This document shows positions 2,428 through 22,185 of a stretch of DNA of 64,000 nucleotides, one piece after another (position 1 is the first letter of the stretch; the number at the start of each line of letters is the position of its first letter). Where the stretch lies: NCBI GenBank assembly GCA_021731145.1, contig JAKFXX010000007.1, forward strand, positions 72,108-136,107. The letters run 5' to 3'. A model generated the notes under the pieces. That model ran no database searches. It saw nothing but the letters and a program-made list of their open reading frames with translations, and was not told the origin of the DNA. The stretch comes from Gammaproteobacteria bacterium (GTDB lineage Bacteria; Pseudomonadota; Gammaproteobacteria; Ga0077554; Ga007554). Both the position numbers and the translations under genes were made by a program.

Positions 2428-2462
2428 CCGGCTCTTTTCGCAATGAGAAGAGCCGGTTTTTA
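2428..2462 (+). terminator. Rho-independent terminator
   Basis: Stem ccggctctt (2428-2436) pairs with aagagccgg (2448-2456) and is followed by a ttttt run, 80 bp after the stop at 2348. Confidence 0.7.
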
Positions 2463-2575
2463 TTTGGGTGTAGTGCGGGCCTTTTAAGCTCAGCGCCCTT
2501 TATTTTTCCTTTTAACTCATTTGTAACATTACCGTGTGAAAATCCCACCTTTAAATAAAACCAGAATATTACTCA

Positions 2576-4186
2576 ATGAAGCGTATTTTTTGTGCGGTGT
2601 TGTACGCCAGTTTTTTTTTCTGGTTTCCGGCGATGGCGCAAGAACAGGCCCCGGCCCCGGCAGAAGAGCAGCCGGTGGTGTTCGATGTGATGGAATACCG
2701 TGTGGAGGGCAACACGGTGTTGCCTGCCATAGTGATCGAGAAGGTGCTTTATCCGCATTTGGGCACGGCAAAAAAGATCGAGGACGTGGAAAAGGCGCGC
2801 GTTGATCTGGAGAAGGCCTACCGCGATGAAGGTTATCCCACCGTGCTGGTGGATATCCCCGAGCAGGATGTGAACAACCGGATGGTGCGCTTGCGCGTGA
2901 CGGAGAGCAAGGTCGAGAAGGTGCGTGTTGTCGGCTCCCGTTACTATTCGCAGGGGCGGATCCTGGAAAAATTCCCGGCGCTGACGCAGGGCGGTGTGCT
3001 GTATCTGCCGGATGTGCAGAAAGGCTTGAGCCGAGTCAACCGCAGCGCGGACCGGCGCGTGACGCCGATACTCAGGCCGGGCAAGACGCCAGGCACCGTG
3101 GAGGTTGATTTCAAGGTTGAAGACAAGCTGCCGCTGCATGCAAGCCTGGAATTGAATGACCGTTACAGCGGCAATACCAGCCCATTGCGGATGATCGGCA
3201 TGGTGCGCTATGACAATCTGTGGCAGCGAGAGCACAGCTTGAGTGTGCAATATCAGACCGCGCCGGAAAAGACCAGCGAAGTCAGTGTATTTTCCGCGTC
3301 TTATTTGTTGCCGGTGCCGGATTCCGACAGGTTGATCGCGATGTACGCCGTGCGTTCACGCAGCGATGTGGCGGCGGTGGGGAATATATCGGTGCTGGGT
3401 CAGGGTGATATTTTCGGCGTGCGCGCCATCCTGCCGCTGCCGCAGCGTGATCGCTTTTTTCATTCCTTGTCATTGGGCTTCGATTACAAGGATTTCAAGG
3501 AAAACGTGACACTGCTTGGCGCGGATTCCATCCGTACCCCGATCAGCTATTTGCCATTTACAGTGCAGTATAACTCGACTTTGCAGGGTGATAGCGGCGT
3601 GACGCAGGCGGATGTGGGGCTGAATTTTTCTGTCCGCGGCCTCGCCGACAACAGGATTGACTGTTTCGGGCAGCACGTTAACGAATTCGAATGCAAGCGC
3701 TATAACGCCAAGCCCAGTTATCTGTATCTGAAGGCCGGTTTGCAGCGCGTGCAACAGTTGCCGCTGGGTCTGCGGCTGATCGCGAGGATCGACGGTCAAT
3801 TGACGGGCCAGCCCCTGATCAGCAATGAGCAATTCGGCGCAGGCGGTGTTGAAAGCGTGCGCGGTTATCTGGAGTATGAGCGATTGGCGGATAACGGCGT
3901 GCGTGGCAGCGTGGAATTGCGCAGCCCCTCGGTTGCCGCGAAGTTGTCAAAGAAATTCGACGACCTGTATTTTCTCGGATTTGCGGAGGGCGCAAAGCTG
4001 CGTGTTAGTGAGCCCCTGCCGGGCCAGGTGTCACGTTTCAGTTTGTCCAGCGCGGGTGTTGGCGTGCGCTTTAAAGGTTGGCGTTACTGGAATGCGTCGC
4101 TCAATGTGGCGGTGCCGTTCGAGAATGCAGCCTTCACAAAGGCCGGGGATGTACGGGTGCATTTCCGGATGGCGTATGAATTTTAG
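2576..4186 (+). CDS. TpsB transporter (ShlB/FhaC/HecB-family outer-membrane hemolysin activation/secretion protein)
   Basis: Signal peptide MKRIFCAVLYASFFFWFPAMA. POTRA-type start VFDVMEYRVEGNTVL. Size 536 aa. Beta-barrel-like C-terminus ending in YEF. Lies immediately upstream of a TPS-domain exoprotein. Confidence 0.9.
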   Translation: MKRIFCAVLYASFFFWFPAMAQEQAPAPAEEQPVVFDVMEYRVEGNTVLPAIVIEKVLYPHLGTAKKIEDVEKARVDLEKAYRDEGYPTVLVDIPEQDVNNRMVRLRVTESKVEKVRVVGSRYYSQGRILEKFPALTQGGVLYLPDVQKGLSRVNRSADRRVTPILRPGKTPGTVEVDFKVEDKLPLHASLELNDRYSGNTSPLRMIGMVRYDNLWQREHSLSVQYQTAPEKTSEVSVFSASYLLPVPDSDRLIAMYAVRSRSDVAAVGNISVLGQGDIFGVRAILPLPQRDRFFHSLSLGFDYKDFKENVTLLGADSIRTPISYLPFTVQYNSTLQGDSGVTQADVGLNFSVRGLADNRIDCFGQHVNEFECKRYNAKPSYLYLKAGLQRVQQLPLGLRLIARIDGQLTGQPLISNEQFGAGGVESVRGYLEYERLADNGVRGSVELRSPSVAAKLSKKFDDLYFLGFAEGAKLRVSEPLPGQVSRFSLSSAGVGVRFKGWRYWNASLNVAVPFENAAFTKAGDVRVHFRMAYEF

Positions 4187-4209
4187 CCAGTGCTGAATCA
4201 ATAGTGGAT

Positions 4210-4262
4210 TGTAGGGTGCGTCCTACGCACCACAATCATTGGTGCGTAGGACGCACCCTACA
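4210..4262. repeat. Perfect 22-bp-stem REP-type hairpin (tgtagggtgcg family)
   Basis: tgtagggtgcgtcctacgcacc (4210-4231), loop acaatcatt, then ggtgcgtaggacgcaccctaca (4241-4262). Each arm is itself internally palindromic. Confidence 0.85.
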
Positions 4263-4283
4263 TAGAGCTGGGTTCAGTGCCAT

Positions 4284-4315
4284 TGTTGGGTCCGCTTCGC
4301 TTGACCCAACCTACA
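4284..4315. repeat. Second REP-type hairpin (tgttgggtc...gacccaacctaca family)
   Basis: gttgggtc (4285-4292) and gacccaac (4303-4310) form a perfect 8-bp inverted repeat around cgcttcgctt. Confidence 0.6.
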
Positions 4316-4346
4316 TTTTCTACTCTATTTTTCGGGGTATCACCAC

Positions 4347-7300
4347 ATGAATGCAAACTTGTTCCGGTTGGTTTTCAGTGCGCGGCTTGGCGCGCTGGTG
4401 CCGGCGTGGGAGGGCGCGCGGGCGCGTCGTGCGGGCAAGGGTGGGCAGCGTGGCCGGGCCGGCAAGCATGCCGCGTTGTTTGCAGGGGCGGCGGGTGTTT
4501 TGTTGTGCGTATTTCCAGTCCATGCAGAGTTGCCGATGCCGTGTGGCGGTGGTGCATGCGGTACGAATCCGATCAATACCCTGCCGTTTGCGAGCAGTGG
4601 CCGCGCCGATTTTTCCAGCAACGGCGTCAGTGCGATTATCAATCAGCTTGACCAAAGAGTCGTGCTGAACTGGCAAAGTTTCAATATCGGGGCCGGTAAC
4701 AGTGTTGAATTCAGGCAGCCGGATGCCGGTTCGGCGGCGCTGAACCGTATATGGCAGGGGTCGCCGAGCGAAATTCTTGGCAACCTGAAAGCCAATGGTC
4801 AGCTTTATCTGATCAATCAGAACGGTATTATTTTCGGCAAGGATGCTCAGGTGAATGCCAGCTCGCTGGTGGCATCGGCGCTGAATATCAGCGACGATGT
4901 TTTCAAAAATGGCGGTATTTACGGCGAGTCGTCGGGCGCAAACCCTGTGTTTACCTGGGAAGATGGCAGCGGGGTGGAATATTCCGCCAGCTTCATCCGG
5001 GTGGATAACGGCGCGAAAATCGCGTCCGCGTCCGGTGGCGTGGTCATGATGCTGGCACCCAAGGTGGAAAATCATGGCAGCATCTCCGCGCCGGGAGGGC
5101 AGGCGGTGCTTGCCGCCGGCGCCAAGGTGTACCTGAGCCTGTTGTCCGACAATGAGGTCAATGGCCTCCCCGCAGGTTCATCGCTGCGTGGCTTTGCCGG
5201 GTTGCTGGTGGAGGTTGACCCGCATGCCTCGGGGCTGGGCGGTGAAGTGACCAATATTGGCCAGATTGTCGCCGAGCGCGGCAATATTACCTTGGCTGGG
5301 CTGGCGGTAAACCAGATGGGGCGGGTTACCGCCACGACGTCGCTGCGGCAAAAGGGTTCGATCATGCTGCTGGCCGCCGATACCAAGGCGGGCGGTGACA
5401 AGACAAAGATTCCTGTCGGGCAGCGCACCGGTGCATTGGTGCTGGGCAAGGACAGCGTAACCGAGGTGTTGCCGGAGACGAATGATGCCACTACCAATTT
5501 CGACGGGCAGGGATTCAGTCCGTCCACGGTGGATCTGGCGGGCAAGAGTATTGAGATGCGGGAGAACGCCGCGATTGTCGCACCGGGCGGAAAAGTCAGT
5601 CTTGTTGCCCGTGAGGATCAGCGGTTACCCGTGCCCAGTGAAAGCAAGATTTATATGGCGCCCGGCAGCCGTATTGATGTATCCGGTACGAAAGATGTCG
5701 ATGTGCCCATGGAGCGCAACTTCATTGAGGTGGAGCTGCGTGGTAACGAGCTGAAGGATTCACCGCTGCAGCGCGATGGCGCGTTGCGCGGCAAAAAAGT
5801 GTGGATTGATATTCGCAAAGGCACACCGCTTGCAGATGTCTCCGGTTATACCGCCCAGGTGGGGAGAACGGTCGCGGAGCGTACCGCGGAAGGTGGTGAG
5901 GTGTCGCTGGTGTCCGCAGGCGATATCGTGATGCGTGAAAATGCTGTGATCGATGTCTCCGCGGGCGGGTTGCGTTATCGTGATGGGCAAGGCAAAACGA
6001 CGCAGTTGGTGTCGCAGGGCAGGGTGTATGACATAGGCGATGCGCCGGCCGATGTCATTTACGATGGCATTGCCAGTTTCACCAAGGAATCAAGAAAGTG
6101 GGGGATTACATCCACCTGGAGTGCCTTTGGTGGAGATGGCTCGCTGAGCCGGTTTGAGCAGGGCTATTACGAAGGCAAGAATGCAGGGTCGGTGACGTTT
6201 CTTGCGAGTGGGCTGGCACTGGATGGCACCTTGACGGGCAAGGCAGCCGCGGGCGTGCATCAGCGCGGCAGTGGCGTGCTGCCCCTGGGCGGGAAGTTTA
6301 CGCTAGGCGATGTCAGTCAGGCCGGGGCGTCTACGCCTGATTTCAGGATTCCGGATGTGCTCTTTTCCGCACAAAAAAATCCGTTGCCTGATGATTTTAC
6401 TTTCGATGAACTCAAGGCGAAGGGTTTGCCTGAAAGTTTCAGGAATCGCGTGACACTCTCCACCGGCGTGTTGCAAGCAGGGGGATTCAACCGTATTGGC
6501 GTATACAGCAACGGGCGCATCGAGGTGCCTAAAGGCGTGTCGATCAGTCTCGCGCCCGGCAGTTGGCTCGGAAAGGACGAGGAGGGGAAGGACAAGATAT
6601 ACACCGCCTCGCTGACACTGACCGGCAGAAAGCTGGATATCCTGGGCGATATCGATGTGCCGGCGGGCAAGATTACGCTGGCGAGCAAGAGAACGCTCGG
6701 CTCCGAGCTACTACAACAGGCGGAAGATTTTCGCGTCAATGTGGGCGCGGACGCCGGCATCACTGCCCGTGGTTTGTGGGTGAATGACTCGCGCTGGGTT
6801 ACGCCGGTAACGGGTGCGGACCCGTTGCTGATCAACGGCGGGTCGATTTCAGTAAGCGCCTTTTCAGATGTCGCACTGAGTTCCGGCAGCGTGCTGGATG
6901 TTTCCGGTGGGGGATGGGTGAAGCCCAATAACCGGCTACAGGTGGGCAACGCCGGTACCCTCAGTTTGGCAAGCGGCTCTTTTGTAAATATAAATAGACC
7001 TGATCGATTTGAATCAACACTCTATCTCGATGGCGAGCTCTACGGCTACGCACTGAGCAGCGGTAACACCGTGGGTAAGGGTGGCACGCTCTCGCTCAGC
7101 ACCTCCAGCGTAAAGATTGGCGGCACGCCTTCCCCTGTCCCCGGCGTATTATCACTTGCCACTGGCGTGTTTCAATCCGGCGGTTTCAAGGACTACACCA
7201 TTACCGGCATGGAGGGCGTTACCGTGAGCCGTGGCGCGCAAGTCGCTCCGCTTGCCGAGAGCCGGGTGCTGACGCCGGATTTTGTGACACGCCGCAGCGG

Positions 7301-10300
7301 TGCGGATATTGGCGGCTTCAGCCGGCGCCAGGTGTTGCTGCCAGAGCAGCGTGCGCCCGGCACCATCACCTTTGCCGCCGGAAGTTCCTTGTGGGGAGCT
7401 ATTTCGGTTGAGGAAGGCGCGCAGGTGCGCACCGATCCAGGGGGAACGATTACGCTCAGTGCAGGCAGCCAGATCAGCCTTTTTGGCGCGCTGGAAGCGC
7501 CCGCCGGGAAGATTTTGCTGGATATAAAAGGCTATGCCGTGAACGGGACATTCGAGCCTAACCGTTTCGTTTGGCTGGGGGGCAACAGCCGCTTATTGGC
7601 GCAGGGTTTCGCCAGAACCCAGACCAATAACCAGGGGCTGCTTCAGGGCGAGGTTCTGGCTGGCGGTGAGATTAACGTCAGCGCCCCGCAAGATACATAT
7701 CTTGTCGCCGAGGCGGGTTCGGTGATGGATGTTTCAGGGGTCAGCGCCACGCTGGATATTCCTCAGCAAAACAATGCCGGCGTGAGCTATCGCCGTGACA
7801 CGATTGCCGGGGATGCGGGCGTTGTTAATCTTGCCATGTCCAACATGTTGCTTGACGGCACATTAAAGGGTGCGGCCGCCGGGGAGCATGCGCGTGGTGG
7901 TTCGCTTATTCTGTCATCCCCCGTGATGGTGGTGAAAGAGGATGGCGCGTCGTTGCCGCAGGGTTTGACGCCCGGCCAGAATATCGCTGCCAAAATGCTT
8001 GAGCCTGCGGCAAGCGCCCTCCAGGGGAAGTCTTTCGTTACGGCAAAGTCGGTGCGTGATGGCGGCTTTGATCAGATCACCTTGACGAGCCTGAACACCA
8101 TTGAATTTGATGGCGATGTCAGCCTTGCGCTGCGGCGCAGCATCACGCTCGATGCGCCAACGATTGCGGCAAAGGAGAATGCCAAGGTTGATCTCGCGGC
8201 CAGTTATGTGTCTGTGGGCAATAGCTCGATTGTGAAGTCGGCATCATCGGGTGGCGGTGGAACGTTAGACGTCGATGCGCGCCTGATTGATCTGGAAGGT
8301 AATGTTGCGCTACAGGGTTTTGGCAATGTTAATTTGGCCAGCACCGGTGATATCCGGCTCAAGGGCGTGTTGCAGGGCAGCGATTTTCTTGCACGCACGC
8401 TGGAAGGCTCGCTTGTCACCGGCGGCAACCTGACGCTACAGGCTGACCAGATTTATCCCACCACCTTGAGTCAATTCCGGCTGGCCGTTGAAAATAATCC
8501 AACGGGCAGCGTGACGATCCTCGGTGGAGGCGCGCCCAGCCCGGTGTTGTCGGCGGGCGGCAAACTTACCGTGAATGCGCCAAACATTGTGCAGCAAGGG
8601 GTACTCAAGGCGCCGCTGGGTGACATCACGCTGGCAGCGGAAGATACGCTGACCTTGGGCGATGGCAGTATCACGTCGGTTTCGGCGGAGGGGCAGATCA
8701 TTCCCTTCGGCAAGACCGATCTGAACGGCAGCGATTATCTCTACCCGCTGGCAGCCGTCGATCTTCGGCTGGATGCGCCGCCTGAAAAGCGTATCCGGTT
8801 GAATGGCAAGGCGATCACGGTTTCAGAAAATGCCGTAGTGGATATCTCCGGCGGGGGCGATCTTTACGCCTATGAATTCATTCCGGGGCCGGGTGGATCC
8901 AGGGATGTGCTTGATGCGGCGAATGCGGGTGATGTTTTCGCCATTCTGCCGGGACGTGCATCTGAATTTGCACCCTATGACAGCCATTATTATCAGGGTA
9001 ACAAGGGAATCAAGCCGGGCGATAGTGTTTATCTATCCGGCGTGGAGGGCTTGCCGGCAGGTTTTTATGCCATGATGCCTGCCCGTTATGCCTTGTTGCC
9101 CGGCGCCTTTCTGGTGAAACCGGTCTCAGGGTATCAGGATATGTCGCCTGGCCAGGCTGTGAAATTGACCGATGGCGCAACCATTGTGTCAGGCTACCAC
9201 GCGGCCGTGGGCCTGGACGGCAGCATCCTGCGTGATGCCAGAACATCGGGTTTTGCCGTGCGCCCTGGCGCATCTGCGCGCACCCAATCGGAGTATCTGG
9301 ATAGCACCGCGAGCGGATTCTTCGCCAACAGCCCGGGCACCCAGCTATCGGGCGATGCAGGCAATCTCTCCATCGCCGCTACCCAGTCCTTAACGCTGAA
9401 TGGTGTGCTGAAAGGTGATCATGCCGCTGGGCGTAACGGCTCGGAAGTGGACATTACCGCCGACCGGCTGGCCATCGTAGGCGCAGGGGCAGACACGTCT
9501 GGTCTGGAGGGCTTCATGCAGCTTGATGCCGCCAGCCTGAACAAATTCAGCGCGTCCAGCCTGTTGTTGGGCGGTACCCGCAAGCGCACTGAAAAAGGCA
9601 TGGAAATCCGCATGGATGCACGGCAGGTTGTGGTCGCCAACACGGCATCCAGCGCGCTGCGTGGCCCTGAGGTTTTATTGGCCGCCAAGGATGAGGTCAG
9701 GGTAAAGGCGGGCAGCGTAGTGGAAGGCAAGGGCGCCGCTTCCGGCAAGCCCCAGGATATTGCCATCGGGTTCACGATCAGGGATACCGACAACGACGGC
9801 GTTATCGGCAAGGCGGACACCAATCGCGGTGATGTGAATCATGATGGCGTGATTGATGGGCAGGACAATGTGGACGGCAATGGCGCGCTGTTGCGCGTGG
9901 CGTCCGGTGAAGCGGTGGCGATAACGCGCGAGAGCGTTGATCGCAGCCAGGGTGATCTGGTGGTGGAGGCCGGCGCGGTGTTGCGGGCAGACAAGTCCAT
10001 GATATTGGACGCTACGCGTGACAACCGTTCAGAGGGCACGCTTGCATTGGGCGAAGGGGGCGCTTTGAGCGTGGGCGCGCAGCGCATCAGCCTGGGCGAG
10101 GCGGGCGATGTGCGGGAAGGGTTGGTGTTTTCCAATGCGCAGCTTGCCGCGCTGAATAACCTTGGCAGCCTGACACTGCGCAGTTATAGCGCGGTGGATA
10201 TTTATGGCGGGGGCGATTTCGGCAGCAAGGCACTGAAGAACCTTTCTATCGAAGCGGCGGGTTTCGGAGGTTATCAAAACGCAGGACAAACAGCGACGCT

Positions 10301-13300: not shown

Positions 13301-14711
13301 CACCGGTGGCAACGCTCAGCGTTTTGCCATTCTACCCAAGCGGGCGTTACTCAGCGCCGGTGTGGACATTAAAAATGTTTCGCTCGCCGGGCAAAACCTG
13401 CGTGATACGGACGTGACCCGCCTTCAGGCCGGGCGCGATGTCATATTCCAGATCCAGCGTAATGATTCAGATGGTAAAATTATTTTTAGCCCAGGCCTCG
13501 AAGATCTCCCCATGAGCGGCCCCGGACGGGTGGAGGTGATTGCCGGGCGCGATGTGGATCTGGGCAGTTCCAGCGGCATCGTCACCAAGGGCAACCTCTA
13601 CAACCCCTTTCTCCCGGAACAGGGCGCCTCAGTGCTGGTATACGCGGGGGCGTCCGCGCCGGCGGATTACGCCGCATTCACCGCGCGCTACATCGAGCCG
13701 CGCGGCGCGGCAACAGGCGGGCGTGACTATATCCCCGAGCTTGCCAGTTACATGCGTGGCCAGAGTGGCGATTTGGGTCTCACTGAGGATGCGGCACTCG
13801 CTCAATTCAAGGCCTTGCCGCAAGAATCGCAGGCCGCGTTCATCAACCGTGTGTTCTTCGCCGAACTCAGATCCTCCGGCCGCGCCGCAGCCGATGTAAA
13901 AGGCCCGGAATACCGTAACTACAGCCATGGCAGAGCGCTCATTGCCACCCTGTTCCCAGCCGTCGAGGGTTCCGCAGGCCAGCCTGAAGGGGACATCAGG
14001 CTATATTTCAGCCAGATCAAAACCGAACAAGGCGGAGATATTGATTTGCTCGCGCCCCATGGTTTGGTCAATGCGGGGCTTGCCACTGCCAAGGGTGTAA
14101 ACAAAACAGCCGCAAACCTCGGTATCGTCAGCGTGCGTGGCGGCAATATAAACGCTTTTGTGCGCGACGATTTTCTGGTCAACCAGTCACGGGTGTTTAC
14201 CATGGCGGGTGGCGATATTCTGATCTGGTCCGACAAGGGCGATATCGACGCCGGCAAAGGCTCAAAAACCGCCAGCGCCACACCGCCGCCACGGCTGAGA
14301 TTGAACAAGGATGGTAGACTCTTTTTTGATATCACCGACTCGGTGACGGGCAGCGGCATCGGCACATTGCTCAGCAAGGAAGGCGTCAGGCCGGGCGATG
14401 TCGATTTGATAGCGCCCGCAGGCGTGGTGAACGCGGGTGATGCGGGCATCCGTGCCAAGGGTGACATCTTCATCCCTGGTTTGGTAGTGGGTGGGGATAA
14501 TATCCGGGCGGGGGGTACCATCACCGGCGTACCCGTCAGCGATAGTGGCGCATTCGCCGGTGCCCTGAGCGGCGTCAGCAACCTTGGCGCCGACACCAGC
14601 AAAATTGCCGAAAAGGCCACCCAGGATCTCTCCGCGTCGGCCGCCAATCCAGTGAAAAACACCTTCCGGCCTTCATTCCTGACGGTGGAGGTGATCGGAT
14701 TCGGTGATTGA
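4347..14711 (+). CDS. Giant TpsA exoprotein, filamentous-hemagglutinin family (3454 aa)
   Basis: ESPR-like extended signal peptide MNANLFRLVFSARLGALVPAWEGA...VFPVHA. TPS/hemagglutination-activity domain NWQSFNIGAGNSVEFRQP...LNRI...GNLKANGQLYLINQNGIIFG. Long Gly/Ala/Val/Asp-rich beta-helix-like repeats. FHA-family C-terminal region ending FLTVEVIGFGD. Paired with TpsB. Confidence 0.95.
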   Translation: MNANLFRLVFSARLGALVPAWEGARARRAGKGGQRGRAGKHAALFAGAAGVLLCVFPVHAELPMPCGGGACGTNPINTLPFASSGRADFSSNGVSAIINQLDQRVVLNWQSFNIGAGNSVEFRQPDAGSAALNRIWQGSPSEILGNLKANGQLYLINQNGIIFGKDAQVNASSLVASALNISDDVFKNGGIYGESSGANPVFTWEDGSGVEYSASFIRVDNGAKIASASGGVVMMLAPKVENHGSISAPGGQAVLAAGAKVYLSLLSDNEVNGLPAGSSLRGFAGLLVEVDPHASGLGGEVTNIGQIVAERGNITLAGLAVNQMGRVTATTSLRQKGSIMLLAADTKAGGDKTKIPVGQRTGALVLGKDSVTEVLPETNDATTNFDGQGFSPSTVDLAGKSIEMRENAAIVAPGGKVSLVAREDQRLPVPSESKIYMAPGSRIDVSGTKDVDVPMERNFIEVELRGNELKDSPLQRDGALRGKKVWIDIRKGTPLADVSGYTAQVGRTVAERTAEGGEVSLVSAGDIVMRENAVIDVSAGGLRYRDGQGKTTQLVSQGRVYDIGDAPADVIYDGIASFTKESRKWGITSTWSAFGGDGSLSRFEQGYYEGKNAGSVTFLASGLALDGTLTGKAAAGVHQRGSGVLPLGGKFTLGDVSQAGASTPDFRIPDVLFSAQKNPLPDDFTFDELKAKGLPESFRNRVTLSTGVLQAGGFNRIGVYSNGRIEVPKGVSISLAPGSWLGKDEEGKDKIYTASLTLTGRKLDILGDIDVPAGKITLASKRTLGSELLQQAEDFRVNVGADAGITARGLWVNDSRWVTPVTGADPLLINGGSISVSAFSDVALSSGSVLDVSGGGWVKPNNRLQVGNAGTLSLASGSFVNINRPDRFESTLYLDGELYGYALSSGNTVGKGGTLSLSTSSVKIGGTPSPVPGVLSLATGVFQSGGFKDYTITGMEGVTVSRGAQVAPLAESRVLTPDFVTRRSGADIGGFSRRQVLLPEQRAPGTITFAAGSSLWGAISVEEGAQVRTDPGGTITLSAGSQISLFGALEAPAGKILLDIKGYAVNGTFEPNRFVWLGGNSRLLAQGFARTQTNNQGLLQGEVLAGGEINVSAPQDTYLVAEAGSVMDVSGVSATLDIPQQNNAGVSYRRDTIAGDAGVVNLAMSNMLLDGTLKGAAAGEHARGGSLILSSPVMVVKEDGASLPQGLTPGQNIAAKMLEPAASALQGKSFVTAKSVRDGGFDQITLTSLNTIEFDGDVSLALRRSITLDAPTIAAKENAKVDLAASYVSVGNSSIVKSASSGGGGTLDVDARLIDLEGNVALQGFGNVNLASTGDIRLKGVLQGSDFLARTLEGSLVTGGNLTLQADQIYPTTLSQFRLAVENNPTGSVTILGGGAPSPVLSAGGKLTVNAPNIVQQGVLKAPLGDITLAAEDTLTLGDGSITSVSAEGQIIPFGKTDLNGSDYLYPLAAVDLRLDAPPEKRIRLNGKAITVSENAVVDISGGGDLYAYEFIPGPGGSRDVLDAANAGDVFAILPGRASEFAPYDSHYYQGNKGIKPGDSVYLSGVEGLPAGFYAMMPARYALLPGAFLVKPVSGYQDMSPGQAVKLTDGATIVSGYHAAVGLDGSILRDARTSGFAVRPGASARTQSEYLDSTASGFFANSPGTQLSGDAGNLSIAATQSLTLNGVLKGDHAAGRNGSEVDITADRLAIVGAGADTSGLEGFMQLDAASLNKFSASSLLLGGTRKRTEKGMEIRMDARQVVVANTASSALRGPEVLLAAKDEVRVKAGSVVEGKGAASGKPQDIAIGFTIRDTDNDGVIGKADTNRGDVNHDGVIDGQDNVDGNGALLRVASGEAVAITRESVDRSQGDLVVEAGAVLRADKSMILDATRDNRSEGTLALGEGGALSVGAQRISLGEAGDVREGLVFSNAQLAALNNLGSLTLRSYSAVDIYGGGDFGSKALKNLSIEAAGFGGYQNAGQTATLRAETVSLSKPNNAVSDVAVPVGTGKLNIDAQRVMLGKGKTAQSSDNTEAGFADVKGFTIKGFDGGVKLAAAQEIVAQGRGKLDVDGDLALESSRITAAGGARQAITATGAVNITQPTVVANLGQATALAGRLDFVGKSINHQGRIDLPTGVVTMTAKGADATDSVTLAAGSQINAPGFVKRFDDVAAYAAGGSVTLVSEHGDVNVNSGALVDVSGTAQSDAGRLTLRAAQGRANIEGSLKGAAGSTSRKGTFTLDAGKISDFSALNNTLNAAEFGEARNIRVRGGDIAVAEGDTIKAHQVSLVADDGRIDVKGTVDASGDTGGRIGLYAQKDVMLHKGGRLDARAMAADKKGGSVTLATSAGEIDLESGASIDVSGGGKDKGGTVLLRAPRIDTDNDQKDDNVAINRKAGTEIAIPSASSVVIEGVKVYDATTIAATGAKVATAAAASNKLYSDTKGFAQNADAIKAGLGKGGDASVHVRAGVEIRSPGDLTLAADWDLFNWRFNGEPGVLTLRAQGDLKLDKSISDGFAFAFTKTGVDKEKSLLQAGDSWSYRLVAGADQGSADPLALQLPGDDTVGDVLLAGKTIVRTGNGTIDIAAARDVTLVSAESVIYTAGVPGGPLSDFTPPRMGADAAAVTAAYPTAGGDIRITAQGNIEAKQPSPQLITDWLFRQGSLNADGTLASNSSVNANHKQPAWRPVFSQFKQGIGALGGGDISITADGDIDNLSAVIPTNGRLGGANGSIPDPSKLVVQGGGNLSVTAGGDIRSGIFYVGKGVGDIKAGGALGSARSADGKPLYTLLALGEGSYNVASGGELAVQHVFNPTVVAQAGGNLSGTSKDKKSQFFTYDADSKVAMTSLSGDVRFINDSASTKSVFGKNSEGMFNIYPGTLSASALQGGISLHGPLALFPAPQGNLTLLAEKSIDLSSNTATINMSDVAPSRLPSPLHPQSADTLGLYKDGNITALVSAADLEGLDYHDPAILHRNDAEPVRIYAQTGSITGGNAQRFAILPKRALLSAGVDIKNVSLAGQNLRDTDVTRLQAGRDVIFQIQRNDSDGKIIFSPGLEDLPMSGPGRVEVIAGRDVDLGSSSGIVTKGNLYNPFLPEQGASVLVYAGASAPADYAAFTARYIEPRGAATGGRDYIPELASYMRGQSGDLGLTEDAALAQFKALPQESQAAFINRVFFAELRSSGRAAADVKGPEYRNYSHGRALIATLFPAVEGSAGQPEGDIRLYFSQIKTEQGGDIDLLAPHGLVNAGLATAKGVNKTAANLGIVSVRGGNINAFVRDDFLVNQSRVFTMAGGDILIWSDKGDIDAGKGSKTASATPPPRLRLNKDGRLFFDITDSVTGSGIGTLLSKEGVRPGDVDLIAPAGVVNAGDAGIRAKGDIFIPGLVVGGDNIRAGGTITGVPVSDSGAFAGALSGVSNLGADTSKIAEKATQDLSASAANPVKNTFRPSFLTVEVIGFGD

Positions 14712-14949
14712 TTATCTTTGAATGTATGCGCTGTGCCCATGAAGGGGGCAATGTGCGCACCGGAGCAAGCAGCCTGGGCGACGTGGAACGGAATCCAGGC
14801 TGCGCACTTCATTTGATCAAACTGTCTGCTATTAACAATTCTGCAACATTTGGCGGGTAAAGTACCCCCTTCCTAAGCAAGCTCATCCCGTTGATGGGGT
14901 GGACGACAGCATATTCCTTCGATCAACCGGATTCACGAATAAAAACGTC

Positions 14950-16743
14950 ATGAAATTGCAATCCAACAAAAAGATATCGCGCATTTTTTTATTACTGGCG
15001 GGTTTGATGACGCTTGTCCCAGGTGTTTCCCACGCCTGGTGGAGTGACGATTGGTCGTATCGCAAAAAGATAACCCTCAATACCACGGAAAGTGGAGCAA
15101 GTATCAAGGAGAGTTTGGCGTCCGTGCCGGTCTTGGTGCGTCTGCACAGCGGCAATTTCGATTTTTTGAGCAGCAAGGAAGACGGATCGGACCTGCGTTT
15201 TGTCAGTGGCGATGACAAAACACCGCTCAAATATCACATCGAAAAATTCGATGGGCTGAATGAGCTTGCCGTGATCTGGGTACAGGTGCCGGCGCTGTCG
15301 GCACAATCCAGCGCCGACGCAATGTGGCTGTATTACGGCAATGAAAAGGCGGCCGCAGGCGATGACGCCAAAGGCACTTACGACGTTAATCAGGTGGTTG
15401 CCTATCATTTTGGCGGCCAGGGCGCACCCAAGGATCAAACCGCCTATGCCAACAGTGCAGCACAGTCCACGGCGAGCGAAGCCGCTGCATCATTGATCGG
15501 CGCAGGCGCAATATTCAATGCTACAAGCACCATAACCATACCGGCATCACCTTCACTCAACTTTACCGCAGAGAAGGGCTTCACGTTTTCCGCATGGATC
15601 AAGACTGCTGCGACGCAGGCGAATGCCGTAATTTTTTCCCAGCAGGAGGGCGCGGCGTCGCTGGTTATCGGCATGGATCAAGCGGGGGTGTATGCCCGCA
15701 TGCCCGGTGCGGAAACAAAACGTGTCGCGTTGGCGCCAGGCGCATGGCACCACGTGGCGGTAAGCGCCGGTAAGCGCCTGGTTGTTTATGTCGATGGCGT
15801 TGAGGCAGCAGCGGCGGATGCCGCCCTGCCGCCGCTGGGTGGGAATATCACGCTGGGCACCTCATTTACCGGTGAGATGGATGAGGTGCAGATATCAAAC
15901 GTTGCCCGTTCCGCGGACTGGATTAAAGCAGCGGCGCAAGGGGAAGGCGTTGATGCGAAGTTGATCGCCTACGGCGCGGATGAACAAACAGAGGGCGGCG
16001 ACTCATCTTATTTTAAGACTATCCTGCAATCCGTTACGCTCGATGGCTGGGTGGTGATCGCGATTTTGATGGTGATGGCCGTCATAAGCTGGATCGTGAT
16101 GGTGAACAAGGCTGTCGTCATCGGCAGAATGACCAGGGATAATGAAAAATTTATCACGTCTTTCCAGAAAGTCGCGGCTGATCCAGGCGTGCTGGACAGG
16201 GATGATGATCAGGATGATAACGCCAATAAAGAGACGCCTTTTGCCGCAGCATTGTTCGGGCGGCACGATCATTACCAAAGCTCGCCGATTTACCGCATCT
16301 ATCATGTTGGTGTGCAGGAAATCAAACACCGCTTTGGCAACACCGATCCCAAACTTGTAGGCAAGGCGCTCTCGCCGCAAGCCATCGGTGCGATTCGTGC
16401 CAGCCTCGATGGGGCATTGGTCAGGGAAAATCAGAAGCTCTCCAGCCAGATGGTGTTGCTCACCATCGCCATCAGTGGTGGGCCGTTCCTTGGTTTGCTC
16501 GGCACCGTGGTGGGCGTGATGATCACCTTCGCCGCGATTGCCGCCAGTGGTGACGTCAACGTCAATGCCATTGCGCCCGGTATTGCCGCAGCGCTGGTGG
16601 CTACCGTGGCGGGTCTGGCCGTGGCGATTCCAGCACTGTTTGGCTACAACTACCTGATCAGTAAAATCAAGAATATCACTGCGGATATGCATGTATTCGT
16701 CGATGAGTTTGTTCACAAGCTGGCTGAGAACTACGGAACTTAG
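14950..16743 (+). CDS. DUF2341/LamG-domain fusion to a MotA/TolQ/ExbB proton channel
   Basis: Signal peptide MKLQSNKKISRIFLLLAGLMTLVPGVSHA. WWSDDWSYRKKITLNT...VIWVQVP...WLYYGN (DUF2341-like). FTFSAWIKT...GAWHHVAVS...VVYVDG (LamG/concanavalin-like). Then three TM helices with an ExbB-type C-terminal pair (GGPFLGLLGTVVGVM / ALVATVAGLAVAIPALFGYN). Confidence 0.85.
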   Translation: MKLQSNKKISRIFLLLAGLMTLVPGVSHAWWSDDWSYRKKITLNTTESGASIKESLASVPVLVRLHSGNFDFLSSKEDGSDLRFVSGDDKTPLKYHIEKFDGLNELAVIWVQVPALSAQSSADAMWLYYGNEKAAAGDDAKGTYDVNQVVAYHFGGQGAPKDQTAYANSAAQSTASEAAASLIGAGAIFNATSTITIPASPSLNFTAEKGFTFSAWIKTAATQANAVIFSQQEGAASLVIGMDQAGVYARMPGAETKRVALAPGAWHHVAVSAGKRLVVYVDGVEAAAADAALPPLGGNITLGTSFTGEMDEVQISNVARSADWIKAAAQGEGVDAKLIAYGADEQTEGGDSSYFKTILQSVTLDGWVVIAILMVMAVISWIVMVNKAVVIGRMTRDNEKFITSFQKVAADPGVLDRDDDQDDNANKETPFAAALFGRHDHYQSSPIYRIYHVGVQEIKHRFGNTDPKLVGKALSPQAIGAIRASLDGALVRENQKLSSQMVLLTIAISGGPFLGLLGTVVGVMITFAAIAASGDVNVNAIAPGIAAALVATVAGLAVAIPALFGYNYLISKIKNITADMHVFVDEFVHKLAENYGT

Positions 16744-16783
16744 TACATGAACACATAAATTGTGCAGCGTAATGCCGCACGAT

Positions 16784-16831
16784 TGTAGGTCGGCCTTCAG
16801 GCCGACATATCCGGCTAAAGCCAGACCTACA
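16784..16831. repeat. REP-type element (tgtaggtcggccttcaggccgaca family)
   Basis: tgtaggtc...gacctaca termini with an internal ggccttcaggcc hairpin, located between the exbB-like gene and exbD. Confidence 0.6.
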
Positions 16832-16892
16832 TGGGGTTCGGATCATGTTTCGTAATTTATAATTTCATGTGCTAGGACTGGAGGATAAAACG

Positions 16893-17297
16893 ATGCAAGT
16901 GCAGTCCGAAGATAAACCGTACGATGACATCAACGTCACGCCCATGCTCGATCTGGCGTATGTGTTGCTGGTAATTTTCATCATCATGACCACCGCTTCG
17001 GTACAGGGTATCAAGGTCAATCTGCCCAAGGCCAGCGCCACACCAAGCCTGGCTAAACCGACCACCAAGGCGATTACGATCACCGATGCCGGGCAAATAT
17101 TTCTCGACACCTATCCGGTGACGATGTCGGAGCTGGAAACACAGTTGCGCAGTTACAAGGCAGCCAACCCAAGTTTTCCCGTGGTCATCAAGGGCGACGC
17201 CAAGGTTCAGTATGAAAAGGTGATTGACGTGCTGGACTTGATGGGCAAGCTCGATATTACGCAATTGGGTTTGGTTACACAGAAAATTGTCAAATAA
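16893..17297 (+). CDS. exbD: ExbD/TolR-family biopolymer transport protein
   Basis: A ggagga RBS lies 8 nt upstream of ATG 16893. N-terminus DDINVTPMLDLAYVLLVIFIIM is the typical ExbD TM segment. Size 134 aa. Confidence 0.9.
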   Translation: MQVQSEDKPYDDINVTPMLDLAYVLLVIFIIMTTASVQGIKVNLPKASATPSLAKPTTKAITITDAGQIFLDTYPVTMSELETQLRSYKAANPSFPVVIKGDAKVQYEKVIDVLDLMGKLDITQLGLVTQKIVK

Positions 17298-17336
17298 GAG
17301 CGCTATGCCAGGCTCGATTTTGTTGGGATGTAACGT

Positions 17337-18032
17337 GTGAGTGCCGACAAGCAGTTTCTGTTCCGCTGGGCGCCCAGGCTGATAGTGGTGGCGTTCCTCC
17401 TGCTGTTTCTTGTGGCGGCGGTCTATTTTCTGAGAGATATCATCTTTGCTGATGATAGCCACAAAAAAAATGTGATCCATGAGATCTCGCTGATAAAGCC
17501 GCCGCCGCCTCCCAAGCCAGAGGAAAAACCACCGGAGCCGGAGGTGAAAAAAGAAGAGGTAAAAATCCCCGAGCCGGAAACGCCGCCTCCTCCTGCTGAT
17601 CAGCCTGATAATGCCAAGCAAGACGAACCACCGCCCGCAAACGACTTGGGGCTGGATGCTGATGGTCAGGCGGGTTCTGATTCCTTTGGCTTGGGTGCCA
17701 ACAAAGGGGGAAGAAGCATCATCGGAGGGGGGGGCGGTAACGGCGGTGGTGGAAATCGCTACGGCTGGTATGCGGGAATGATTGAAAAGGGAATTCAGGA
17801 TGTTTTGGACAAGAATAAAGAGCTTGCCAAAGATAACTATAAGGTTGTCATAAAAGTCTGGGTCAACAAGGACGGGAGCGTCGAGCGCTTTGATCTTGGC
17901 GGTTCTTCCGGGAATCCAGAGACGGATAAGGCGATAAGGACGGCACTGAAAGAAATGACACGGGTGAAAGAACCGCCTCCAGACGGAATGCCGCAACCTG
18001 TAAAGCTGCGCATCACTTCGCGTTTGTTGTAA
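17337..18032 (+). CDS. tonB: TonB-family energy transducer
   Basis: GTG start. N-terminal TM LIVVAFLLLFLVAAVYFL. Pro/Glu/Lys-rich spacer KPPPPPKPEEKPPEPEVKKEEVKIPEPETPPPP. C-terminal TonB-like domain VIKVWVNKDGSVERFDL...PVKLRITSR. Confidence 0.8.
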   Translation: MSADKQFLFRWAPRLIVVAFLLLFLVAAVYFLRDIIFADDSHKKNVIHEISLIKPPPPPKPEEKPPEPEVKKEEVKIPEPETPPPPADQPDNAKQDEPPPANDLGLDADGQAGSDSFGLGANKGGRSIIGGGGGNGGGGNRYGWYAGMIEKGIQDVLDKNKELAKDNYKVVIKVWVNKDGSVERFDLGGSSGNPETDKAIRTALKEMTRVKEPPPDGMPQPVKLRITSRLL

Positions 18033-18037
18033 GTCGG

Positions 18038-18058
18038 CAGGTAATGCCGGATTACCTG
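18038..18058 (+). terminator. Small hairpin after tonB (weak terminator candidate)
   Basis: caggtaat / attacctg forms a perfect 8-bp stem with a 5-nt loop. No clean T-run follows. Confidence 0.3.
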
Positions 18059-18121
18059 ATGATTTTCATCCCTCTGGGGTGAGGATTGAGATGAAAAATT
18101 CACAGTGAGAAGAACCTGGAA

Positions 18122-19660
18122 ATGGCAATTAAGAAATTAGGTGTTACCGTCTTATCTCTCGCATTGTTCAATCCATCCGCGTGGGCTGGAGAAAAAGAAG
18201 ATCTTGAAAAACTGCGCGGAACTACCAAAGGACTGATTCAAATTCTGGTGGAGCAGGGCGCGATTACCAAGGAAAAGGCCGGGGAGTTAATACGCGAGAT
18301 CGAGAAATCTCCCACGGAAACGGAAACACCGGAAGAAGAAGTAGATAAGAAAACCGTGCGCGTGCCTTACGTGTCTGAAACGGTCAAGCAGGAAATGACG
18401 GAGCAGATCCGGATGGATGTGCTGGCACAAGCCAAGCGGGAACAGTGGGGCAAGCCCGGCGCAATCCCTGAGTGGGCACAGAAAATAAGGTGGGAAGGCG
18501 ATTTTCGCTTGCGTTCACAGAGCGATATGTTTCAGAGCGACAACTTTAACCTCCTGCCAAACTATCTGGAGATTAACCGGGTTGGCGGTCCGGCGAATAC
18601 GGATAATCCCTTTCTGAATACTACTAATGACCGGGAGCGTTTACGGTTGCGGGCAAGGCTGAGCATGCTCGCCGAAGTCACGCAAGGGGTCACGGCGGCA
18701 TTCCGTCTGGCCACCGGTAGTGCCAATGATCCTGTTTCGACCAACCAGACATTGGGCAATATGGGCAATCGTTTTAATTTTATGCTTGATCAAGCCTACA
18801 TCAAGCTGGAGCCTTATCAATGGTTGACGCTGGTGGGTGGCAAGATACCCAATCCCTGGTTTGGCACCGACCTGGTGTGGGACGAGGATCTTAACTTCGA
18901 TGGCGCCGCCGTGCAATTCAAACCGCGCATCGGCAACGAACTGGTATGGTTCTCAACGCTGGGTGCTTTTCCGTTGCAGGAAATCGAGCTGTCGAAAAAG
19001 GACAAATGGCTATACGGTGCGCAGACCGGTGTCGATTGGAATCGAAGCCAGTTCAGGGCGAGATTTGGCGTGGCTTATTATGACTACCAGAATATCACCG
19101 GGCAAAGAAAAGCGCCCAATGATCCTTCTCAGGATTTTACCGCGCCGCAGTTTATGCAGAAAGGTAATACCTTGTTTGATATTTCACAAACTCAAAACAG
19201 TGGCAGGTACGCGCTTGCATCTGAATACAAAGAATTGAACATAACCGCCAACCTCGATATATACACATTTTCCCCGGTACACATCACGCTGACAGGCGAT
19301 TATGTCAAGAATATTGGGTTTAAAAAAGAAGACATAGTGCAGCGTACCGGGAGAGATGTCGACCAGCAGAATCAGGCATATTTGGGCAGGGTTGCTGTCG
19401 GCATGCCGAGGATCAAGCATCGCCACGACTGGCAGGTGTTCGGTGGTTATAAACACCTGGAAAGCGACGCCGTATTGGATGCCTTCACAGATTCCGATTT
19501 CCATCTGGGGGGCACCAATGCCAAAGGCTGGATCGCGGGCGGTAGCTATGGTGTTGCCACCGATACCTGGCTGACACTGCGCTGGTTGAGCGCGGATCAG
19601 ATAGTTGGGCCGCCGCTTGCCATCGACGTTATGCAACTTGATTTGAACGTGAGATTTTGA
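18122..19660 (+). CDS. Putative porin-like outer-membrane beta-barrel with an N-terminal charged/coiled segment
   Basis: Signal peptide ...LFNPSAWA. About 90 aa of Glu/Lys-rich helix. Alternating beta-strand-like sequence follows. The terminal LDLNVRF carries an OMP-type C-terminal Phe. Confidence 0.65.
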   Translation: MAIKKLGVTVLSLALFNPSAWAGEKEDLEKLRGTTKGLIQILVEQGAITKEKAGELIREIEKSPTETETPEEEVDKKTVRVPYVSETVKQEMTEQIRMDVLAQAKREQWGKPGAIPEWAQKIRWEGDFRLRSQSDMFQSDNFNLLPNYLEINRVGGPANTDNPFLNTTNDRERLRLRARLSMLAEVTQGVTAAFRLATGSANDPVSTNQTLGNMGNRFNFMLDQAYIKLEPYQWLTLVGGKIPNPWFGTDLVWDEDLNFDGAAVQFKPRIGNELVWFSTLGAFPLQEIELSKKDKWLYGAQTGVDWNRSQFRARFGVAYYDYQNITGQRKAPNDPSQDFTAPQFMQKGNTLFDISQTQNSGRYALASEYKELNITANLDIYTFSPVHITLTGDYVKNIGFKKEDIVQRTGRDVDQQNQAYLGRVAVGMPRIKHRHDWQVFGGYKHLESDAVLDAFTDSDFHLGGTNAKGWIAGGSYGVATDTWLTLRWLSADQIVGPPLAIDVMQLDLNVRF

Positions 19661-19717
19661 CCTGTGTATTTTTTAGAGTCACGGAACACGGCCGGGACCA
19701 GACAGGAGGTGAATGTC

Positions 19718-20416
19718 ATGATCCGTCATAAAGGATGGCTTCTGCTTGTAATGTTCACTCTAGGGTTGGCCGGAAATGCCGCTGCGGATTCCGGTGACAA
19801 AAAAGAACGCGAGGCGCTAAGAAAAATGCGCCTCATGATACAGACGTTTGAACAGGAAAAATCGGCGCTGCAGCAGGAAAACAATAGCCTGAACGAGAAA
19901 GTGAAGGCACTGGGTAGCCAGGTCGGTGACATCAAAAGCGCTTCCACAGGCCAGATCAGGAAAAAAGATGCTCGTTTGGGCGAGGTTGAAAAGGAACTGG
20001 TTGCTGTCAAACAGGAAAATCAGTTTCTGGTAGCCAAGCTGCAAAGTACCCAGCAGAGTCTGGAAGAATTGACGCTGAAGCACAAGGAGGTTGTTCAGGC
20101 CGCGCAAAACAGTCTTCAGGACGGCGTCAAGCAAGGCGAGGAGTATAACAATAAGATAAAAGAGGCTGAAGTCAAAATTTCTCAGCAGTCTCAAGCTATT
20201 GACATGTGCGAGAAGAAGAATCTGGCGCTTTACAATCTCAATATGGAGATTCTGGAGAAATACAAGAGTAAGGGTGTTTGGGGATCATTTATTCAGGCTG
20301 AGCCCTTTACGCAAATAAAGCGCGTTGAAATTGAGAATACACTGCAAGAATATAAGGACAAGCTTGACAGCCAAAAAATGGAAAAATCTGGACCCGGCAC
20401 CGGCAAGGGAGGATAG
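19718..20416 (+). CDS. Secreted/periplasmic coiled-coil protein
   Basis: An aggagg RBS precedes ATG 19718. Signal peptide MIRHKGWLLLVMFTLGLAGNAAA. The remainder is heptad-like and rich in Glu/Lys/Gln/Leu. Confidence 0.7.
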   Translation: MIRHKGWLLLVMFTLGLAGNAAADSGDKKEREALRKMRLMIQTFEQEKSALQQENNSLNEKVKALGSQVGDIKSASTGQIRKKDARLGEVEKELVAVKQENQFLVAKLQSTQQSLEELTLKHKEVVQAAQNSLQDGVKQGEEYNNKIKEAEVKISQQSQAIDMCEKKNLALYNLNMEILEKYKSKGVWGSFIQAEPFTQIKRVEIENTLQEYKDKLDSQKMEKSGPGTGKGG

Positions 20417-22133: not shown

Positions 22134-22185
22134 TGGCTGTTTTACTTACGAGATGAGTCCTCAGAGTAAGTGATATTTGATTTGT

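Follow-up and report, generated by a model that had tools for sequence, protein, structure and literature searches.

The closest described counterpart of the locus considered here is the Pdt cluster of Pseudomonas aeruginosa. In strain PAO1 the genes lie in the order hxc (PA0677-87), lapA (PA0688), pdtA (PA0690), phdA, pdtB (PA0692), exbB2, exbD2, tonB4 (PA0695), PA0696, PA0697, PA0698 (YbjN family), PA0699 (peptidyl-prolyl isomerase, PPIase) and PA0701 (LysR), the product of PA0696 being annotated as 'putative outer membrane porin' and that of PA0697 having a signal peptide and a helical fold (PMC2729926, PMC4971064, PMC7035377). That homologues of the two-partner secretion (TPS) proteins, of ExbBD and of PA0696 travel together was noted by Llamas et al. 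in 2009 (PMC2729926), so the association of these genes, already reported in P. aeruginosa, is not new; the names exbB2-exbD2-tonB4 were given in later papers (PMC4971064, PMC7035377). In 2020 the literature still described this Ton set of P. aeruginosa as "still uncharacterized", and no later characterisation of the exbB2-exbD2-tonB4/PA0696 cluster was found in the literature searched, where DUF2341, DUF3739 and PF16930/Porin_5 led to nothing on the cassette and the papers use names such as pdtA and exbB2. Here we describe a cassette at positions 2576-20416 of a 64,000-nucleotide stretch (contig JAKFXX010000007.1) from a Gammaproteobacteria bacterium, the whole of which is referred to as the window. 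Judged by sequence comparison this region is very probably a Pdt-type cassette, in which a proton-driven motor may operate a porin-like barrel that has no plug.

The cassette starts with the TPS pair, composed of TpsB, a PdtB-like outer-membrane transporter (2576-4186; POTRA_2 E 1e-14, ShlB E 1e-10), and TpsA, a PdtA-like fibre protein of 3454 amino acids (4347-14711; ESPR, TPS domain E 5e-23, DUF3739 and TIGR01901), both encoded, as are the other parts of the cassette and its flanking genes between 12 and 31392, on the forward (+) strand. POTRA_2 and ShlB score above their gathering scores and the TPS domain reaches 82.6 bits against a cut-off of 33.5, as expected of a two-partner secretion system. 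These genes are followed by those for an ExbB2-like, TolQ-type channel subunit (14899-16743, probable start 14950; DUF2341 E 3e-18, Laminin_G_3 E 3e-17, MotA_ExbB E 1e-27), an ExbD2/TolR-like subunit (16869-17297; ExbD E 6e-28), a TonB4-like transducer with an N-terminal transmembrane helix, a Pro-rich spacer, a Gly-rich segment and a TonB_2 domain (17337-18032; E 7e-10), a PA0696-like Porin_5 barrel protein of 512 amino acids with the C-terminus LDLNVRF (18122-19660; full-length Porin_5 match, E 8e-175) and a heptad-rich coiled-coil protein at the PA0697 position, with a signal peptide and a secreted form of 232 amino acids (open reading frame 19664-20416, ATG at 19718). An earlier sequence-only reading of the window had described a TPS pair coupled directly to an ExbB-ExbD-TonB set, together with a porin-like barrel and a coiled-coil protein, and had seen no TonB-dependent receptor. 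This description is upheld, the Ton-type set being a dedicated one: the domain scans found every gene it listed in its place, and the gene calls and domain matches thus confirm the observation. The scans covered the large open reading frames of the whole 64 kb, and among these no Plug or TonB_dep_Rec domain, no siderophore gene and no ABC importer was found.

Comparison with PAO1 was made through two bridge loci, one from Klebsiella (L088) and one from Burkholderia (L087), together with the published PA0692-PA0701 order. The Klebsiella pneumoniae plasmid NZ_CP065459.1 carries at 1-13800 the end of TpsA, TpsB, the channel subunit (621 amino acids, with DUF2341, LamG and MotA_ExbB), ExbD, TonB, a 'putative porin', a hypothetical protein, YbjN, a PPIase, a second hypothetical protein and LysR, which is exactly the PA0690-PA0701 order, and its proteins align to those of the window with identities of 35% for the porin (over 98% of its length), 35% for the channel N-domain (E 5e-72), 57% for ExbD, 35% for TpsB and 37% for the TpsA end. 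Burkholderia arboris has TpsB, the channel subunit, ExbD, TonB, the porin, a homologue of the coiled-coil protein, YbjN and the PPIase; genes for GspF and GspG are located some 11 kb further upstream. Across the two loci the identities to the window range over 34-35% for the porin, 35-42% for the ExbB N-domain (E 5e-72 to 4e-95), 57-73% for ExbD and 35-40% for TpsB; both have an ExbB with DUF2341 and LamG, a Porin_5 barrel and a TpsA with a DUF3739 end, and share with the window the porin motif and the TpsA terminal motif described below. The coiled-coil protein belongs to no Pfam family, and tblastn gave no match for it in the Klebsiella locus; the proteins at the PA0697 position have a C-terminal motif in common with it (Burkholderia E 1e-8, Klebsiella by eye).

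The window thus has the same components as the P. aeruginosa Pdt cluster, arranged alike from tpsB through to the gene at the PA0697 position, and likewise a type II secretion set and a gene for a PstS-family protein alongside. It differs in having tpsB before tpsA on one strand and no phdA, in lacking YbjN, PPIase and LysR genes, in place of which a CAAX protease and a DsbA-like gene follow, and in that no vreAIR genes were seen in it and no Pho box was detectable. A further observation concerns the Klebsiella locus itself, which lies on an IncFIB/IncHI1B plasmid and is flanked by insertion sequence elements: its tpsA and tpsB are frameshifted and the genes from the channel subunit to LysR are intact, which is evidence that genes for the motor and porin spread by horizontal transfer and can persist when the TPS genes decay.

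Relatives were collected with a pattern scan based on the Porin_5 alignment, using one genome per species, which gave at least 580 confirmed relatives; the best 80 of these at least 580 Porin_5-bearing species loci were kept for locus comparisons, and their gene content was counted by tblastn with the window proteins. In 59 of the 60 loci with enough DNA for the count, genes for TonB, ExbD and both channel halves are found directly upstream of the porin gene, the exception being L031, where the porin gene comes straight after TpsA and the channel genes are located downstream. Of 54 loci, 49 have TpsA encoded upstream in the same orientation (in 35 loci it is immediately upstream), with one or two genes inserted where it does not immediately precede the motor, and about 58 of 67 loci have a coiled-coil gene on the downstream side of the porin. 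The sequence-only reading depended on the TPS genes being linked to the motor in other genomes too, and both the TpsA count and that for motor and porin bear this out. In L017, L026, L060 and L071 the motor, porin and coiled-coil genes are kept with no TpsA within about 7 kb. Taken together, the locus counts define an invariant core made up of the motor, Porin_5 and the coiled-coil protein, with TpsA as a near-constant partner.

This gene order holds over identities ranging from 96% to about 34%, in Beta- and Gammaproteobacteria and also on plasmids. The closest locus among the matches listed belongs to a metagenome-assembled genome (MAG) of 'Gammaproteobacteria bacterium Ga0074134' (96% identity), and other carriers include Sulfuricella, Sulfuriferula, Thiobacillus, Hydrogenophaga, Rhodoferax, Methylophilaceae, Methylococcaceae, Chromatiaceae, Thiohalobacter and similar taxa. 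It could be argued that the genes are coincidental neighbours, the Ton set serving unlinked TonB-dependent receptors and the porin being an ordinary diffusion channel, since genomes often carry several Ton sets. A chance neighbourhood is disfavoured by linkage conserved over such a range of identities, taxa and plasmids, with a motor preceding Porin_5 genes in all but one of the loci counted, and also by a periplasmic domain of the channel subunit that is specific to this family; we consider this explanation hardly credible. An ankyrin-repeat gene was also observed in 38 related loci (e.g. L011, 4101-4862); wherever its position was determined it separates the porin gene from the coiled-coil gene, and neither the window nor its closest relatives have it.

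The porin is the component on which our interpretation centres. In its structural model (predicted local distance difference test, pLDDT, 74) three helices precede 16 long strands, the helical part, about 100 residues long, forming a periplasmic N-terminus, and the Porin_5 profile gave no sequence match to solved structures. The segment KKTVRVPYVSE (porin residues 76-86, window 18347-18379) ranks among the most conserved stretches of the family, R80, V81, P82, Y83, V84, P85 and E86 of the motif being invariant or at least 90% conserved (alignment A1), and it reappears as V[RA]VPY[VI]P in Klebsiella and Burkholderia homologues that are about 34% identical. Its first half lies inside a linker with pLDDT below 50 (residues 63-81), and the pLDDT climbs from residue 82 onwards. 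The sequence-only reading had proposed, as a speculation, that this segment is a TonB-box-like strand; its conservation and its position in the linker fit that proposal, and on these grounds the segment can be called a candidate TonB/TolA-binding linear motif. A second conserved element is the arginine-rich strand RERLRLRAR (18632-18658), which lies in the predicted strand 2 (residues 171-187) and in which R171, R173, R175, R177 and R179 are Arg or Lys in 93-99% of 70 sequences. The residues alternating with them (L174, L176, A178, L180) are hydrophobic, and from this alternation the arginine face would be expected to line the barrel lumen. The Porin_O_P model did not match the window porin, and one family member (P0214) carries PF07396.

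Evidence on the physiological setting comes mainly from Pseudomonas and from the related loci. In P. aeruginosa the promoter PphdA drives phdA, pdtB, exbB2D2, tonB4 and PA0696-0701 at low phosphate and needs both PhoB and sigma-VreI (PMC4971064), and of the proteins that become enriched when phosphate is limiting, PdtA, PA0696 and PA0698 rank near the top (PMC9769906). LapA and DING are PstS-family exoproteins secreted by Hxc, the DING gene of P. fluorescens being flanked by hxc (PMC2242829, PMC2225411), and Hxc is found beside the pdt/exbB2 locus in both P. aeruginosa and P. fluorescens (PMC2729926, PMC7035377). In the window, a gene at 822-2348 encodes a PstS-like, putatively secreted binding protein of about 508 amino acids with conserved cysteines, whose match to PBP_like_2 is weak and under the gathering score. 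The family is small (389 cluster representatives); PBP_like_2 is matched by 19 of 37 of its members, and its profile finds PstS (4ecf, E 2e-7) among solved structures. Homologues adjoin TpsB/TpsA in the Sulfuricella MAG (L086; 46% identity), in L084 and in L007. A strong terminator-like hairpin with a 15-bp stem followed by a T run (2426-2458) separates the PstS-like gene from tpsB, which suggests that the PstS-like gene forms a transcription unit of its own.

Downstream of the cassette, a complete type II secretion-like set extends over 22177-31392 and comprises GspF, GspE with MshEN, PilM/N/O-like proteins, a secretin with a tetratricopeptide repeat (TPR) region at its N-terminus and pseudopilins including a GspG-type major one. 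We considered whether this cluster could instead be an MSHA or type IV pilus, as its ATPase has the MshEN domain, which binds cyclic diguanylate (c-di-GMP), and scores above the NF053729 cut-off; the major pilin passes the GspG model with 165 bits against a cut-off of 89, and the cluster is read as type II secretion-like on that basis. Similar secretion sets were found by the cassette in Sideroxydans sp. CL21 (L001), where they follow a cassette of the same order, in L004, in Thiobacillus (L046 and L062, opposite strand) and in B. arboris. Given that LapA and DING belong to the PstS family and are secreted by Hxc, the PstS-like gene and the secretion set complete the parallel with Pseudomonas, and by analogy of position we treat the former as a counterpart of LapA/DING and the latter as a counterpart of Hxc.

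Phosphate-related genes also occur within or beside the cassette in relatives. In L021 a PhoX alkaline phosphatase with a PEP-CTERM anchor is encoded after the coiled-coil gene, a 5'-nucleotidase is encoded in six loci (between TpsA and the channel gene in L025, where the position was checked), and in L084 pstSCAB-phoU and psiE stand beside tpsB. A Pho-box-like site, taken as two CTGTCAT-like repeats four bases apart with at most three mismatches, precedes the exbB/channel gene in 13 of 63 loci, whereas 1.36 were expected from dinucleotide shuffles (maximum of 4 in 100), and these sites are mostly in one orientation and mostly within about 100 nt of the channel start. In this light the statement of the sequence-only reading that the locus has no uptake genes is misleading, because the Pseudomonas cluster belongs to a phosphate-starvation regulon and relatives carry phosphatases and Pho-box-like sites. 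A separate observation is that PEP-CTERM 'choice-of-anchor I' proteins are encoded in four loci, between TpsA and the channel subunit in L059 (4882-6345), L077 (5248-6801) and L056, and downstream on the opposite strand in L052. Whether these could be counted as phosphatases was considered, but a sequence search of the PDB gave nothing useful and they were left uncounted.

From this evidence a nutrient-channel role of the barrel appears at least as likely as a role in fibre handling, because of the modelled 16-stranded porin fold, the Arg-rich strand, the phosphate-starvation regulon, the embedded phosphatases and the Pho-box-like sites. The reading that we prefer, and to which we give an even chance, is that the TonB-like protein relays the action of the motor to the N-terminal motif of the Porin_5 barrel and that the barrel passes a phosphorus-bearing anion harvested at the cell surface. 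The proton-driven motor would work through the TonB-like protein on the porin, probably making contact at the invariant VRVPYV of the N-terminal extension, and its action would gate or operate the barrel, which would then pass an anionic phosphorus-bearing substrate. The fibre, together with the PstS-like protein and phosphatases at the cell surface, would capture or release this substrate, and the LamG domain and the coiled-coil protein may act as adaptors in the periplasm. What we infer in this scheme is which parts make contact, in which direction transport runs and what is transported, and its setting, phosphorus scavenging, is drawn from Pseudomonas regulation and from related loci rather than from the window.

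Several points weigh against this reading. To our knowledge no TonB system acts on a plugless 16-stranded porin, and in structural comparison the barrel comes closest to OmpM1, which is an outer-membrane tether that has a stalk in the periplasm and not a specific channel. That the basic face of strand 171-187 lines the lumen follows from the alternation of residues and not from the model, and the TonB-like protein lacks a conserved His in its transmembrane helix (alignment of 46 sequences), although the transmembrane helices of TonB and TolA have one. With regard to phosphorus, only about 16 of 86 loci have at least one phosphate-related gene, some of the PstB matches among them possibly being generic ABC ATPases, and the intergenic regions of the window contain no Pho box by consensus, by a relaxed scan or by a matrix made from the related sites, so that phosphate control, while likely for the cassette family from the sites in its members, is unsupported for this organism. 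The homology to PA0693-PA0697 rests on the bridge loci and published annotations rather than on direct alignment with PAO1. Finally, transposon mutants of P. aeruginosa in tpsA, tpsB, tonB4 and PA0696 had no phenotype, zebrafish virulence being the sole assay (PMC2729926).

The sequence-only reading had left it open whether the motor acts on the porin-like barrel or on the fibre; the motif on the barrel and the persistence of the core without TpsA favour the porin, and the fibre is a live rival. According to this alternative, the C-terminus of TpsA remains periplasmic once the fibre is exported, and the TonB-like protein or the LamG domains of the channel subunit hold it, pull it, put it under tension or let it go, with the porin and coiled-coil protein serving as an outer-membrane anchor. 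TpsA contains ESPR, TPS and DUF3739 regions only, with no toxin domain and no further Pfam domain. Its DUF3739 region (residues 3288-3397, window 14208-14537; Pfam E 9e-34) is conserved in all aligned relatives, with repeats that look beta-helix-like by eye, and this conserved region is followed by a low-complexity tail and then by a strand-like segment, SFLTVEVIGFGD, at 14673-14708, directly before the stop. The corresponding motif, [ST]F[IL][ST][AV]E[VI][IVL]G[FHY]G[DE], is found at or near the C-terminus in about 40 relatives and extends to the Klebsiella plasmid locus, and it could pair as a strand with a TonB/TolA C-domain. The tie of TpsA to the motor in the great majority of loci points in the same direction, as do the lectin-like periplasmic domain of the channel subunit, which is suited to partner binding, the likeness of the barrel to a stalked tether and the case of Salmonella, in which the SiiAB proton channel supports the giant adhesin SiiE. 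In three loci (L018, 13565-15640; L060; L075) a LapD-like receptor with LapD_MoxY_N, GGDEF and EAL domains is also encoded a few kb downstream of the cassette; receptors of this kind govern adhesin retention in other systems in response to c-di-GMP, and their presence hints at c-di-GMP control of surface-protein retention here.

The fibre alternative must nevertheless assume that the TpsA C-terminus is retained in the periplasm, it places the binding site elsewhere than on the porin, where the best-conserved candidate motif sits, and fibre mechanics alone would leave the phosphate-related context unexplained. The four loci that keep the motor, porin and coiled-coil genes without a nearby TpsA count against it as well, and we judge it unlikely, if a serious contender. 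Contact-dependent inhibition of the CdiBAI type was also considered for the TPS pair and rejected, as TpsA has no pretoxin (VENN) or toxin Pfam domain, ends in DUF3739 and the strand motif, and is followed, at the position where CdiBAI has its immunity gene, by the gene for the channel subunit.

The motor itself combines features of both Ton and Tol systems. The channel subunit consists of a signal peptide, a DUF2341 and LamG region and then three transmembrane helices. In its AlphaFold2 model (pLDDT 76) the C-terminal part superposes on E. coli TolQ with a template modelling score of about 0.76-0.8, and the N-domain is a confidently modelled jelly-roll resembling the clostridial neurotoxin Hc-N, the lectin-like half of the binding domain. 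In the TolQ/ExbB family the N-terminus is usually periplasmic, and by analogy with this topology the DUF2341 and LamG domain would be located in the periplasm. The Thr and Pro residues of the second and third transmembrane helices are invariant among relatives and the predicted transmembrane segment of ExbD contains an Asp (in 'MLDLAYVLL', by eye), so from these residues the proton channel looks functional. An alignment of 46 TonB-like sequences revealed a conserved QEI[SA]L[IL]KPPPP after the transmembrane helix and a conserved C-domain.

Both the channel subunit and ExbD are closer to TolQ/TolR than to ExbB/ExbD according to sequence models and, for TolQ, also according to structure, which brings a third explanation into consideration: a Tol-Pal-like envelope module that tethers or remodels the outer membrane locally, with no transport through the porin, and that could stabilise the sites from which a very large fibre and a matrix of PEP-CTERM proteins and exopolysaccharide leave the cell. 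The resemblance of the porin to the OmpM1 tether would suit such a role, as would the exosortase/exopolysaccharide or PEP-CTERM genes that occur by or in the cassette in a sizeable minority of loci. The equivalog scores are, however, below the cut-offs for TolQ (134 bits against 221), TolR (94 against 127) and TolA (23.5 against 59) as well as for ExbB (68.9 against 206) and the ExbD models (53-65 against 123-216), and of the ExbB/ExbD/TonB models only the general TonB C-terminal domain passes (32.5 against 27.1). Moreover, the window has neither a TolB nor a Pal gene, a pure tether would not need the conserved arginine strand, and the Pseudomonas, Klebsiella and Burkholderia versions occur without a PEP-CTERM context. 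For these reasons we regard the envelope module as improbable.

The PEP-CTERM context is itself accessory rather than defining. Poly_export was found in 11 loci, XrtA in 4, a CAAX protease in about 12 and PEP-CTERM open reading frames in at least 12, and such neighbours are common in Betaproteobacteria and absent from the Klebsiella and Burkholderia Pdt-type loci. In the window they are represented by a PEP-CTERM-anchored protein of 196 amino acids (12-602; motif supported by Pfam, E 1e-4, and by NCBIfam PEP-CTERM families), a 38%-identical homologue of which occupies the same place upstream of the PstS-like gene in the Sulfuricella MAG, and by a PEP-CTERM-associated CAAX-type intramembrane protease (20473-21162; TIGR03008, 241 bits, above cut-off). 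The possibility that the motor is part of exosortase/PEP-CTERM export was examined and set aside, such genes being absent from the Klebsiella and Burkholderia loci.

A signalling device, in which the motor and porin report contact or ligand binding at the fibre to a regulator, is suggested by the location of the cassette beside the PUMA3 genes vreA-vreI-vreR in Pseudomonas and some other genera (PMC2729926), VreA resembling only the N-terminal part of a TonB-dependent transducer (PMC2729926). Neither the 64 kb of the window nor the recurrent families of the 80 loci include a pair of extracytoplasmic function (ECF) sigma and anti-sigma factors, and in Pseudomonas it is sigma-VreI that controls the cassette and not the reverse (PMC4971064), which makes this explanation very unlikely.

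As for the remainder of the window, the unit is larger than 2576-20416, since it includes the PEP-CTERM and PstS-like genes upstream and the type II secretion-like set downstream; a gene for a DsbA-like lipoprotein also lies downstream of the cassette, and beyond 31900 housekeeping genes follow (topA, smg, dprA, def, fmt, rsmB and ntrYX). A sigma-54 promoter scan gave 3 matches against 4 expected, none of them well positioned. Two inverted repeats were observed in the unit. A long imperfect one at 640-745 (gttcacttaac...cgaacggttaagtgaac), between the PEP-CTERM and PstS-like genes, could be a terminator, a repeat element or a regulatory hairpin, and a G+C-rich one at 14750-14810 (GTGCGCA...CCTGG...CCAGG...TGCGCAC) lies within the 240 bp that separate tpsA from the channel gene, where it may act as an attenuator or mark a processing site that divides the fibre genes from those of the motor. 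Farther away, at 50000-52600, the G+C content falls to about 0.50 over a stretch with a truncated AAA_15/AAA_23 ATPase open reading frame (51036-51494) and a gene with HATPase_c_2 and DUF4325 (STAS-like) domains (51487-52503, minus strand), which may be a small foreign or defence-related insert.

If the porin is indeed the target, the motor would energise a plugless, stalked 16-stranded porin (Porin_5/PA0696), that is, a second energised class of outer-membrane protein, dedicated to the TpsA fibre and serving gated uptake or fibre handling in at least several hundred proteobacterial species, a generalisation that we put forward tentatively and hold to be rather doubtful as a whole. Should it be true, TonB systems could no longer be taken to act on plugged receptors only, and either a new route of phosphorus acquisition or a new control of surface fibres would have been uncovered. 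In P. aeruginosa, exbB2-exbD2-tonB4 and PA0696-PA0697 have been carried as 'uncharacterized' members of the phosphate-starvation and sigma-VreI regulons since 2009. Beyond Pseudomonas the cassette is old and wide, being found in at least 580 species that include iron-, sulfur- and methane-oxidisers of groundwater and sediments. What the window and its relatives add is the core, the lectin-like channel domain that is always present, the invariant porin motif and the arginine strand, and these conserved motifs make the function of a plugless Ton/Tol-like module directly testable in a tractable organism.

Compared with classical TonB uptake, the window has the same proton-channel pair and a TonB-type transducer with a Pro-rich spacer and a C-terminal domain, but no plugged 22-stranded receptor is found in the 64 kb, the linked barrel being 16-stranded with a helical N-terminus, the channel subunits nearer to TolQ/TolR and the TonB-like transmembrane helix without the conserved His. 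With Tol-Pal it shares TolQ and TolR as the best matches of its channel subunits and a transducer with a long spacer, and its coiled-coil protein recalls CpoB, a periplasmic coiled-coil protein of that system; it differs in its scores below the cut-offs, in being without TolB and Pal, in the additional DUF2341 and LamG region and in the linked TPS pair and porin. OmpM1 of Veillonella and DcaP of Acinetobacter are 16-stranded porins with a helical periplasmic N-terminal extension, as in the window porin, and the basic strand recalls the arginine ladder (so named in the title of PDB 2o4v) of the Pseudomonas phosphate porin OprP, whereas the window porin has no sequence match to solved structures, no SLH domain and a strict linkage to a motor.

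A motor of the MotAB/ExbBD/TolQR type is combined with a very large surface adhesin in SiiAB-SiiE of Salmonella, AglRQS-Glt-CglB of Myxococcus and GldLM-SprB of Flavobacterium, the Glt system of Myxococcus also having TonB-like proteins and outer-membrane barrels. These systems differ from the window in using type I, Glt and type IX routes with no TPS pair, and no motility genes are tied to the window cassette. For the pairing of TPS and Ton components found in the window, a precedent is provided by the TPS-assisted haem system HxuCBA of Haemophilus, whose TPS exoprotein HxuA has a Ton-energised outer-membrane protein as its partner (PMC4873976, PMC5422565).

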